Shown piece after piece: positions 62,117 through 64,000 of a stretch of 64,000 nt of DNA. Position 1 is the stretch's first letter. Every line of letters begins with the position of its first letter. The notes under the pieces were generated by a model that saw only the letters and a list, made by a program, of their open reading frames with translations, did no database searches and was not told where the DNA came from. The translations under genes were made by a program, and so were the position numbers. Source of the DNA: an uncultured Parachlamydiaceae bacterium. GTDB lineage: Bacteria; Chlamydiota; Chlamydiia; Chlamydiales; Parachlamydiaceae. Location of the stretch: contig CAVVXH010000012.1 of assembly GCA_963752155.1 (NCBI GenBank), positions 1 through 64,000 on the forward strand. The letters run 5' to 3'.

Positions 62117-64000
62117 ATGAATTCTAACAATGTAAAACCAATAACATCATCTGCTCAATTTTGGAAAAATAATCCTTACAAGAAGAATGATTGCAAGCAA
62201 AACATTCCAACAACTCAAAGCCAATCTCATTCCCCCGAAAAATTAAATATTTCTCGAAACCAAACCAATCAAGTTTCAGAAAAAATAATAGTCAAAAACA
62301 ACTCTGATTCGGAGAAAATAGCTCCAAAACTACATCAAAAGCGAATTTCGGAAGCAAATCAAGCTTCACAATTTTGGAAAAATAATCCTCTCACGGAAAA
62401 AAAGGATCCATTTGAAAATCATAACTCCCTTCCGGTTACACTATTAAACGAAAATAAACCTCAAAAGACATTTTCTGAAGAGATTTCAGTGAAGAAGTCA
62501 CAAAAAATTTTCCTTTCTTCTCCGGTCAATTCTACAAGAATAAATTCGAGTATGACTGGGCCTTGTCAAAACACTCATAGTAGTGACCAAAAAATTATTT
62601 CTTATAATAAAAGAATGAATAAATGTAGAAATATTGAAGAAGTAAAAGAAATATTCGAAGAAATGAGATCAAATCATCTTCAACCTGATATAGTCACATA
62701 TAATTCATATATAAAACAGTGGGTACTACGACAGTTTTCTGCAAATGACGTAAAGGCTTTAATTTCAGAGATGCAAAAACAGAAGATAGAGCCCGATGTC
62801 GTCACTTATAGTACGTTGATCGACGCCTATGACAAAAAAGGAAAAATCGATGAAGCGATAGCTCTTTTTAAGGAAATGCAAAATCAAAGAATCGAGCCTA
62901 ATGTCGTGACTTATAATATCCTGATCAATGCCTTTGGTAAAAGAGGAAGAAACGATGAAGCGATAGCTCTTTTTGAGGAAATGCAAGAGCGAAGAATCGA
63001 ACCTAATGATAGGACTTATAGTACATTAATCAATGCCTACGGTAAAAAAGAAAAAATTGATGAAGCAATAGCTCTTTTTGACGAAATGCAAAAGCAAGGG
63101 ATCGCGCCAAGTGTCGTGACTTATAATACATTGATCAATGCATTTGGTCAAAAAGGAAGAATTGATGAAGCGATAGCTCTTTTTGAGAAAATGCAAAAGC
63201 AAAAGATCGTCCCTAGTGTCGTAACTTATAATACATTGATCAATGCCTATGCTAAAAAAGGAAGAATCGATGAGGCAATAGCTCTTTTTGAGGAAATACA
63301 AAAGCAAAGAATCGAGCCTAGTATCGTGACTTATAATACAATGATCAATGTTTATGATAAAAAAGGGAATATCGGTGAAGCGAGAGCTCTTTTCGAGAAA
63401 ATGCAGAAGCAAAGAATCAAGCCTGATCTTATGACTTATAATTCATTGTTAAATGCTTATGGTAACAAAGGAAAAATTGACGAAGCGATAGCTCTTTTTG
63501 AGAAAATGAAAAGGGAAGGATTCAAGCCCAGTGTCGTGACTTATAATATATTGATCACTGCCTATGATAAAAAAGGAAAAACCGATAGGGCGATAGCTCT
63601 TTTTGAGGAAATGCAAAAGGAAAAAATCGCCCCCAATGTCGTGACTTATAATATATTGATCACTGCCTATGATAAAAAAGGAAGAACCGATGAGGCGATA
63701 GGTCTTTTTGAGGAAATGCAAAAGCAAAAAATTGAGCCGGATGCCGTTACCTACGGTACGTTGATTAATGCCTATTCCAAAAAAGGAAGAACCGATGAGG
63801 CGATAGGTCTTTTTGAGGAAATGCAAAAGGAAGGAATCGAGCCTAATGTCGTGACTTATAATACATTGATCAATGCCTATGGCAAAAAAGAAAGAATCGA
63901 TCAGGCAATAGCTCTTTTTGAGGAAATGAAAAAGAAGGGGATAGCGCCTGATGCCAGGACTTATAGTACGCTGATCAATGCCTATGGCAAAAAAAAAGAA
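62117..64000 (+). CDS. P-class pentatricopeptide-repeat (PPR) protein, running off the window end
   Basis: Open frame from ATG 62117; ~160-aa S/N/K-rich leader, then >=13 complete repeats (first two degenerate) like [35 protein letters not shown] at a 105-bp period. Confidence 0.92.
   Translation, partial: [628 protein letters not shown]

Follow-up and report, generated by a model that had tools for sequence, protein, structure and literature searches.

What is a protein built from pentatricopeptide repeats (PPRs), usually seen as a eukaryotic invention for the control of organelle RNA, doing in a chlamydia? The question is raised by a gene at the end of the window, the stretch of 64,000 nucleotides analysed here, which comprises positions 1 to 64000 of contig C12 (CAVVXH010000012.1) in the assembly of an uncultured Parachlamydiaceae bacterium (GCA_963752155.1); positions beyond 64000 are those of C12 and run on the same scale. 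The gene crosses the window edge, and the protein that it encodes consists, almost certainly, of five parts: a leader of ~150 residues, a tract of ~16 PPRs (14 with readable code pairs), a divergent Smr domain, an acidic linker and a CaaX box. Its most likely role, to which we would give a probability of about 0.6 on the strength of sequence analysis, is that of an effector delivered to the host, anchored in a membrane and binding or cutting RNA in a sequence-specific manner. The protein is a member of an undescribed family with a patchy distribution in the phylum.

The leader and the PPR array

The first open reading frame of the gene (ORF1) begins with ATG and is open to the end of the window, where it encodes 628 amino acids. 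In full it has 648, the last 20 codons being out of frame with what follows. It is cut by the edge of the window rather than by that of the contig, as the contig continues to position 101,814. ORF1 can be dissected into the leader, a degenerate unit R0, a 36-residue unit R1, eleven 35-residue units and the start of R13. The repeats are of the PPR kind. The Pfam family PPR_2 matches ORF1 with an E value of 3.1e-198 and 642 bits (cut-off 30) in 13 stretches, and PPR_1 (2.6e-161), PPR (5.1e-123), PPR_3 and PPR_long all lie above their cut-offs as well. The top tetratricopeptide repeat (TPR) family, TPR_1, reaches 4.4e-34 and 115 bits with no stretch passing alone. The units are uniform and include no L or S length variants, which places the array in the P class, and no E-motif or DYW family is found among the best 25 of the 45 Pfam families that match ORF1.

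Tandem Repeats Finder reports a period of 105 with 11.7 copies, 81% matches and 0% indels at 62771-63994, and units R2 to R12 are 70-90% identical to each other in DNA (mean 79.6%) and 65.8% identical in protein. Residues T3, Y4, A20, L23, F24 and P34 are invariant across the units, in agreement with the PPR consensus. In an AlphaFold model made from the single sequence, 14 regular helix pairs follow one another from residue 153 onwards, with a predicted local distance difference test score (pLDDT) of 80-94; the pairs of R0 and R1 occupy residues 153-185 and 192-221. The closest solved structures are the designer PPR 5i9g (E 2.1e-206), PPR10 and pTAC2/PAP2.

The leader is polar and predicted to be unstructured. 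In the single-sequence model, pLDDT is <50 at residues 1-14, 18-85 and 89-154, and the composition, with the leader cut as 191 residues, is 13% S, 14% N and 12% K with no hydrophobic segment. The two copies of the heptapeptide QFWKNNP found in it are the sole occurrences in the six-frame translation of the genome. Nothing resembling a promoter was found in the 168 bases that precede the start codon, and the scan revealed nothing like a terminator either.

Much of this had been anticipated in a preliminary description made from the letters of the window, namely the uninterrupted plus-strand frame from 62117 to the window end, the disordered leader with its repeated heptapeptide, the P-class assignment, the 13 complete PPR units and a partial one (R0 to R12 and the start of R13) and the resemblance between 105-bp units in DNA. 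Its remark that the ORF track had missed the frame fits the public protein collection, in which the second ORF of the gene (ORF2) is stored as P0121 and ORF1 gave no 100% self-match in its own search. The description went too far in calling the array recently amplified. Divergence between units amounts to dN 0.19 and dS 0.52 (dN/dS 0.37), and a dS of ~0.5 with this ratio indicates an array that is not freshly amplified and has been under purifying selection since its amplification.

A divergent Smr domain

Recovery of the full gene, as the preliminary description had proposed, brought to light a frame break at the window end and, beyond it, a C-terminal domain and tail. ORF2 contains two further PPR matches (PPR_2, E 9e-20) followed by a segment of 110 residues without a Pfam match. 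When 1.84 billion representative proteins were searched exhaustively, this segment had 22 relatives besides the protein itself, with E values from 2e-9 to 8e-4. PPR motifs lie upstream of the matched stretch in 17 of the 22, and Pfam places Smr at the aligned stretch in five, one of them clear (3.7e-21) and four just below threshold; two are proteins of a Chlamydiota metagenome-assembled genome (MAG), both on one contig of 94.6 kb. When the segment is aligned with 11 short relatives (alignment A1), the columns H, S, G, I, G, G, N and G are invariant and make up the motifs LD.H..S.G, ITGKG.HS and N.G.

The profile of A1 matches the Smr domain of human N4BP2 (2vkc, E 1e-3; 2d9i, 2.4e-3; 3fau, 0.01), and hhalign aligns the domain motif by motif to the Smr domain of a GUN1 orthologue (E 2.2e-4, probability 45%). 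An AlphaFold (AF2) model built on A1 has a pLDDT of 80.9 and a predicted template modelling score (pTM) of 0.71. Nine of its best 10 Foldseek rows are Smr domains, from N4BP2 and the MutS2 proteins of Thermus and Deinococcus, or pTAC2/PAP2 chains of plastid RNA polymerase complexes; the top match is 2d9i (E 3.7e-4, probability 1.00), and E. coli YdaL stands at rank 17. The motifs LDXH and TGXG define the eukaryote-type subfamily 2 of Smr domains in the available text of two papers (PMC3858433, PMC6662315). Profile, fold and the LDCH and TGKG motifs together thus point to a PPR-SMR protein with a divergent Smr domain. No match to the Smr family PF01713, and so no canonical Smr gene, was found anywhere in the genome, which makes the PPR-linked domain its only Smr.

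Other searches were less productive. A word-indexed search with the Smr-like domain returned only the protein itself, a scan of named genomes with the single protein as query returned no relative, and a search of the ESM Atlas gave no usable match. A scan of named genomes with back-translated motifs matched at least 120 stretches. Among the 80 loci screened from these, strong matches were confined to two loci of one Chlamydiota MAG contig and one other bacterial contig, and the remaining loci were ordinary Smr genes; a PPR profile made from 11 units of the window had no match in the 80 loci.

The C-terminal tail

After an acidic stretch the protein ends in ...EEFLEESFISGKPSCIIL, i.e. ...GKPSCIIL followed by the stop codon. 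The last four residues, C-I-I-L, follow the Cys-aliphatic-aliphatic-X pattern of the CaaX box, a eukaryotic prenylation signal. Bacteria are not known to have CaaX prenyltransferases. In this genome 8 of 2278 stop-to-stop ORFs of at least 150 residues end in C-[AVIL]-[AVIL]-X, with 2.8 expected from the internal tetrapeptide frequency. One of the carriers is an ORF of 400 residues at C1:331-1530, without a match in Pfam or PADLOC, which ends in ...EEFLEEIFISGKPSCLIL (CLIL). It shares with the PPR-SMR gene the last 53 residues (53% identity; 89 bases at 82%) and nothing else. Being common to two unrelated ORFs, the tail behaves as a portable C-terminal module.

The same C-terminal motif is found in effectors of other intravacuolar bacteria, such as AnkB and PelC/PelE of Legionella and GtgE of Salmonella, which the available texts describe as injected, lipidated by the host and anchored to the vacuole. 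Their effector domains are unrelated to PPR-SMR, and for the chlamydial protein prenylation is only predicted. No report of a chlamydial CaaX effector was found, no dedicated literature search for one having been made. The tail is the strongest single hint that the protein may act in the host cell.

Some other ORFs of the genome end in a similar way. Two paralogues at C7:27641-28807 and C10:54105-55256, which are 77% identical and without a Pfam match, have a basic stretch followed by CVIQ at the C-terminus, an ORF of 302 residues at C11:282648-283553 ends in ...KQKTGCILQ, and a Sel1-repeat protein of 954 residues at C6:240741-243602 ends in CVIS. The CaaX-ending ORFs may form a small cohort of host-directed proteins.

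Family members elsewhere in the phylum

All 15 PPR_2 matches of the genome sit in this one gene. Among 400 genomes sampled evenly across the phylum, PPR_2 occurs in 34 (29 of 211 genera) and the Smr-like profile A1 in 29 (22 of 211 genera), counts that include the present genome and leave one genome (G005) unscored in both searches. As counted from the two tables, 20 genomes are common to both lists. Rare in bacteria as PPR proteins may be, as the preliminary description had it, in this phylum they are not a one-off. Many of the matches belong to open frames that encode 560-970 residues and have the Smr-like domain as their C-terminal part, and several family members come from assemblies of one or two contigs. 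Three loci, L026 (genome G092), L018 (G185) and L038 (G393), have a period of 102, i.e. units of 34 residues and thus of TPR length, yet match PPR_2.

In G271, a genome of the same family as that of the window, 11 PPR-SMR ORFs lie within 36 kb (G271:C1:2736639-2771728; loci L182 and L183). Seven or eight of them are large, with 775-970 residues, the others being fragments, and an additional copy contains four stops. The paralogues have 12-17 near-identical repeats each and share a polar leader of ~240 residues, 48-83% identical among themselves, in which BLASTP finds no similarity to the leader of the window gene. High internal repeat similarity is a trait of the family, two G271 genes having 14-15.5 copies with 89-92% matches.

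A full-text search of the literature, with supplements outside its reach, found no paper reporting PPR or PPR-SMR proteins in chlamydiae. In the available text of PMC4029402 bacteria are held to be without PPR proteins, and the chlamydial TGM proteins mentioned there are without PPR motifs.

Code residues and predicted target

The scaffold hardly varies among the 110 units found in the G271 cluster, and residues 5 and 35, the two through which a PPR would select its base, are drawn from a small set. Position 5 is T in 60 units, N in 49 and S in one; position 35 is N in 61, D in 45, T in three and H in one. The resulting pairs are TN (32), NN (28), TD (26) and ND (19), with only five others. 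Between them these four pairs canonically specify the bases A, C, G and U, and they are also the ones used in designer PPRs. The code string is different in every paralogue, and in the G271 gene of locus L014 positions 5 and 35 rank 2nd-3rd most variable of the 35. The comparison of repeat number and code between related genomes, which the preliminary description had suggested, thus yields paralogues each with its own string. The analogy that it drew with transcription activator-like (TAL) effectors finds support at the level of the family in the canonical pairs of 105 of the 110 G271 units, and less in the window gene, where the code positions are not the most variable. At position 35, 52% of unit pairs differ non-synonymously and 0% synonymously.

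The code pairs of the window gene, from R1 to R14, are ND, SN, NN, SS, NS, NS, ND, NS, NN, ND, GN, ND, SD and SD, and the variants are all one nucleotide step from AAT. Of the 14, 12 have described base preferences, and the array is predicted to bind single-stranded RNA in a sequence-specific manner. With the code-to-base table of the PPR literature the target would read roughly U-A-C-?-C-C-U-C-C-U-?-U-G-G. This string resembles the anti-Shine-Dalgarno end of the 16S rRNA in the genome, GGAUCACCUCCUUUAAAGG, and the latter was considered as a target and rejected: the match extends to 8 of the 12 defined positions, a level reached by 0.21% of all sites in the genome, so that the resemblance is not significant. 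There is no obvious self target in the genome, and nothing further is concluded from this.

Relationship to known systems

In design the protein resembles the PPR-SMR proteins of plants (GUN1, SOT1/PPR53, SVR7 and pTAC2), in which a P-class PPR tract is likewise followed by a C-terminal Smr domain. The motifs are those of the same Smr subfamily, LDCH and TGKG here as against LDLH and TGWG in GUN1 (available text of PMC6662315), the signature LD.H..S.GAA is common to the chlamydial domain and the GUN1 type, and pTAC2/PAP2 chains turn up in both sequence and fold searches. The two also differ. The chlamydial gene is bacterial, whereas the plant proteins are described in the accessible part of PMC3858433 as products of nuclear genes in plastid-bearing eukaryotes; it has an unstructured polar leader in place of an organelle transit peptide, its repeats are far more uniform (80% DNA identity), its Smr domain is too divergent for Pfam and it carries an acidic CaaX tail.

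Plant PPR proteins are also the best full-length matches to ORF1, at 24-43% identity, and 12 of the best 120 matches are PPR-SMR proteins of the GUN1 type with LDLH..S.GAA...TGWGKHS. The chlamydial Smr-like profile scores 45-91 bits with metagenomic PPR-linked domains, 22-37 bits with bacterial Smr proteins selected by motif and 11-13 bits with the Smr domain of GUN1. In a quick maximum-likelihood tree, the 12 plant domains of the GUN1 type are placed among the PPR-linked domains of chlamydiae and metagenomes and apart from 51 bacterial Smr domains (SH-like approximate likelihood ratio test, SH-aLRT, 88-91). This tree, of 106 rows and 94 columns, is unrooted, has a biased bacterial sample and includes no other eukaryotic Smr and no other class of plant PPR-SMR; it is compatible with a single PPR-Smr fusion common to plants and chlamydiae.

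PPR-SMR proteins are confined to green plants, algae and heterokonts according to the available text of PMC3858433, with one bacterial exception in Legionella longbeachae that is read there as a remnant of transfer. In SOT1 specificity resides in the PPR tract, and RNA is cut by the SMR domain ~20 nt away from where the protein binds; cleavage of RNA requires TGXG and that of DNA LDXH (PMC6662315, text in part). L. longbeachae is a bacterium that dwells in amoebae, as the present amoeba-type chlamydia presumably does, and its PPR-SMR is held to be derived from a eukaryote (PMC3858433, PMC11338181, PMC7542358, each in its available text). It belongs to another phylum, its genes are described as isolated transfer remnants rather than clusters of paralogues, and the likeness is by description only.

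Designer PPRs (dPPR and cPPR; 5i9g, 5i9f, 5orq and 6een) consist of the same near-consensus units of 35 residues, but the chlamydial protein is a natural one with a leader, a nuclease domain and a signal for a lipid anchor. The TAL effectors of Xanthomonas and Ralstonia follow the same logic of a secretion leader, near-identical repeats with varying specificity residues and a C-terminal functional module. They read double-stranded DNA through an unrelated repeat of 33-35 residues, so that the likeness is one of analogy and not of kinship. Ralstonia, a plant pathogen, also has RipL, likened here by description only, which is not known to have an Smr domain. RipL too is a bacterial PPR protein and is injected by a type III system, as described in the available text of PMC10654456.

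Proposed function and alternatives

The features described above can be combined into a mechanism. The protein would reach the host cell by export, probably through the type III system, and a host prenyltransferase would lipidate the CaaX cysteine and so tether it to a host or inclusion membrane. The array would read pyrimidine-rich single-stranded RNA, one base per repeat, through residues 5 and 35, and the Smr domain might cut, or at least act on, the bound RNA nearby, as in plant SOT1. Across the family, arrays would be homogenized while the code residues are reshuffled, giving paralogues with different predicted targets. That the protein is a secreted effector we infer from the unstructured polar leader, the CaaX box on a portable tail, the patchy distribution and the presence of a type III export-gate gene.

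More tentatively, and with odds well short of even, environmental chlamydiae may possess a family of natural programmable RNA-targeting effectors, in which a code-reshuffled PPR tract is joined to an Smr endonuclease and, in this lineage, held at host membranes by a borrowed CaaX tail, as an RNA counterpart of the TAL effectors; the PPR-Smr fusion would perhaps be held in common with the GUN1 type. If so, chlamydiae would have a new class of host-directed RNA effectors with targets readable from sequence, and an RNA-regulatory gene would join those exchanged, in either direction, between chlamydiae and the plant lineage. The sharing of genes between chlamydiae and plants has long been debated, and the family would offer a handle on where the PPR-Smr fusion arose. 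PPR-SMR proteins such as GUN1 and SOT1 are central to chloroplast biogenesis and retrograde signalling and are still poorly understood; the bacterial family would provide natural and simple models of a PPR tract directing an Smr nuclease.

Several observations weigh against the PPR-SMR effector proposed above. Pfam, its Smr family included, is silent on the C-terminal 167 residues even at an E value of 10, and the Smr assignment, drawn from profile, fold and motifs, is of modest strength. Among 401 genomes of the phylum searched, no other contains the tail, and a CaaX ending is absent from the other family members examined. The genus is represented in the survey by one other genome, 99% complete, in which neither PPR_2 nor the Smr-like profile finds a match. 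Positions 35 and 5 of the window array (entropy 1.57 and 1.10) are only about 5th-6th and 11th-12th most variable of the 35. When the units of G271 are pooled, the two positions come 7th and 9th, behind the surface positions 18, 31, 17, 30, 1 and 33, so that variation is not confined to the code. No site in the bacterium's own genome matches the predicted target at 12 of 12 positions, and 13 sites match at 11 of 12, which is near chance. Lastly, the reading frame is broken in a run of nine A residues (A9), and of 15 ORFs tested in the surrounding 20 kb (C12:52001-72000) at least 7 are split or truncated, so this may be a dead copy.

The chance that the present copy is indeed dead, in a family that otherwise works as proposed, falls only somewhat below even. 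The A9 break would then be real, the locus would lie in a decaying accessory region and the gene would yield only a truncated PPR array with neither nuclease nor CaaX tail. ORF1 does terminate 20 codons past the window end, at C12:64063, and ORF2 begins within a PPR unit in a different frame. The neighbouring genes are in a similar state: those for the type IIIA H+-ATPase, the phosphoketolase and an APH(9)-like phosphotransferase are split in two, and those for glucose-6-phosphate isomerase (PGI), class I aldolase, a TupA-like protein, AbiEii and an MsbA-like protein are truncated relative to their family profiles. The birth and death of family members is seen also in the fragments of G271 and its copy with four stops. 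The cluster of broken genes reflects either local gene decay or a locally poor consensus sequence; not every junction inspected falls at a homopolymer. Coverage by long ORFs (at least 300 amino acids) is 0.57 here and 0.59 in a two-contig relative. When 68 long ORFs of G271 were used as queries, 43 had no match at 45% identity or above, and of the 25 with orthologue-like matches 24 were intact, none was split and one was partial. As genes elsewhere are intact and ORF coverage is equal, the breaks appear to be concentrated locally rather than spread over the assembly.

Indel errors throughout the assembly were considered as the cause of the break and are not supported by these two checks, though two other genes are also broken. 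The SctV-family gene (C10:589611-591652) has a TGA and a frame change near its 3' end, and one TLC transporter gene (C9:16805-18270) is split in two. Both would be expected to be essential, so some breaks in the assembly are likely to be errors. Further points against a dead copy are the dN/dS of 0.37 between units, a genome completeness of only 80% despite large contigs, and ORF2 itself, which is open for 237 codons with every motif intact, so that any real break must be very recent. The break may be an error of sequencing or consensus, or the gene may have been inactivated very recently. Alternatively, the tract may be prone to slippage; endosymbionts are known to undergo transcriptional slippage at long A runs.

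Unlikely, though deserving of more weight than the remaining alternatives, is a role inside the bacterium, in which the protein would not be exported and would act on the cell's own RNA, in the processing of rRNA or mRNA or at stalled ribosomes, in the manner of SOT1 in plastids or of SmrB and MutS2. Bacterial Smr proteins act at ribosomes and SOT1 processes rRNA precursors (available texts of PMC10897456 and PMC6662315, respectively), the domain is the only Smr of the genome and the predicted target resembles the 3' end of 16S rRNA. That resemblance is not significant, however, as described above, and the genome has no perfect site. Housekeeping also fits badly with a gene that is missing in most of the phylum and in the other genome of its genus, with the expansion of paralogues that differ in code string, and with a eukaryotic CaaX signal.

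It is very improbable that the repeats are a TPR-like scaffold for binding protein that merely resembles PPR and reads no RNA. PPR and TPR are members of the same structural superfamily, ORF1 has secondary matches to many TPR families and some family members have 34-residue units, but the 642 bits and 13 stretches of PPR_2 stand against 115 bits and none for TPR_1, a contest that the preliminary description had regarded as decisive. The invariant residues, which match the PPR consensus, point the same way, as do the described base preferences of 12 of 14 pairs here and 105 of 110 in G271 and the fact that the closest solved structures are designer PPRs bound to RNA.

That plant or algal DNA was misassembled into the contig, a hazard raised in the preliminary description and suggested by the plant proteins among the best matches (24-43% identity) and by one suspicious join in the first 2.1 kb at 72% G+C, has a negligible chance of being correct, given a gene without introns in mid-contig (62-64.7 kb of 101.8 kb) whose G+C is that of its surroundings, bacterial-type genes on both flanks, no plant match above 43% identity and relatives of the same architecture in 28 other genomes of the phylum, one- and two-contig assemblies included.

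Features of the gene

Coordinates of the PPR-SMR gene and its parts (window positions up to 64000, contig C12 positions beyond).
Feature	Position	Strand	Evidence
ORF1 (leader, PPR R0-R12, first half of R13)	62117..64000, on to C12:64063	+	ORF listing
Polar leader, residues 1-153, S/N/K-rich, predicted unstructured	62117..62575	+	pLDDT, composition
QFWKNNP, copy 1	62156..62176	+	six-frame translation
QFWKNNP, copy 2	62369..62389	+	six-frame translation
Degenerate PPR R0 (about residues 153-191) and 36-residue R1 (residues 192-227, code pair N/D)	62573..62797	+	register cut, model helices
Eleven exact 105-base PPR units, R2-R12	62798..63952	+	Tandem Repeats Finder, register cut
PPR R13 (S/D), holds the frame break	63953..64000, on to C12:64056	+	unit length of 104 bases, not 105
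A9 run, site of the reading-frame change	63989..63997	+	frame comparison, unit length
ORF2, 237 amino acids, stored as P0121	C12:64030-64743	+	ORF listing
PPR R14 (S/D) and degenerate capping unit R15	C12:64057-64257	+	Pfam PPR_2, register
Divergent Smr domain	C12:64267-64494	+	profile, fold, motifs
LDCH	C12:64273-64284	+	motif
TGKG	C12:64363-64374	+	motif
Short linker and acidic tail	C12:64495-64728	+	sequence
CaaX box C-I-I-L	C12:64729-64740	+	sequence
Stop codon	C12:64741-64743	+	sequence

Genomic surroundings

The PPR gene is bacterial, chlamydial DNA and not contamination. Its G+C content is 0.35, and it is flanked upstream by genes or fragments for an ion-channel protein, a TupA-like protein, AbiEii, CopA and an MsbA-like ABC transporter, and downstream by those for a P-type H+-ATPase, glucose-6-phosphate isomerase, class I aldolase and phosphoketolase. 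The genome (G000 in our survey) comprises 3.13 Mb in 22 contigs, with 4% contamination. A gene for an Hc1 histone-like protein (E 8e-19), one for an SctV-family type III export gate and six matches to the family of TLC nucleotide transporters together form the signature of an obligate intracellular chlamydia. Sequence shared with the other genome of the genus amounts to no more than 196 bases in the 10 kb surrounding the PPR gene.

A fragment of an AbiEii-type toxin (profile positions 113-229 of 238) lies at 59599-60030, ~2 kb upstream of the PPR gene. A defence system was considered here and dropped, as PADLOC gave two weak matches with no stretch passing. At the other end of the window, positions 1-2100 have a G+C content of 70-77%, as against ~38% elsewhere, and hold a truncated fragment of the arginase family (1719-2165, minus strand) together with ORFs without a Pfam match. 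This start of the contig is probably a chimeric join or foreign DNA; it is the sole doubtful join in the contig and lies 60 kb from the PPR gene.

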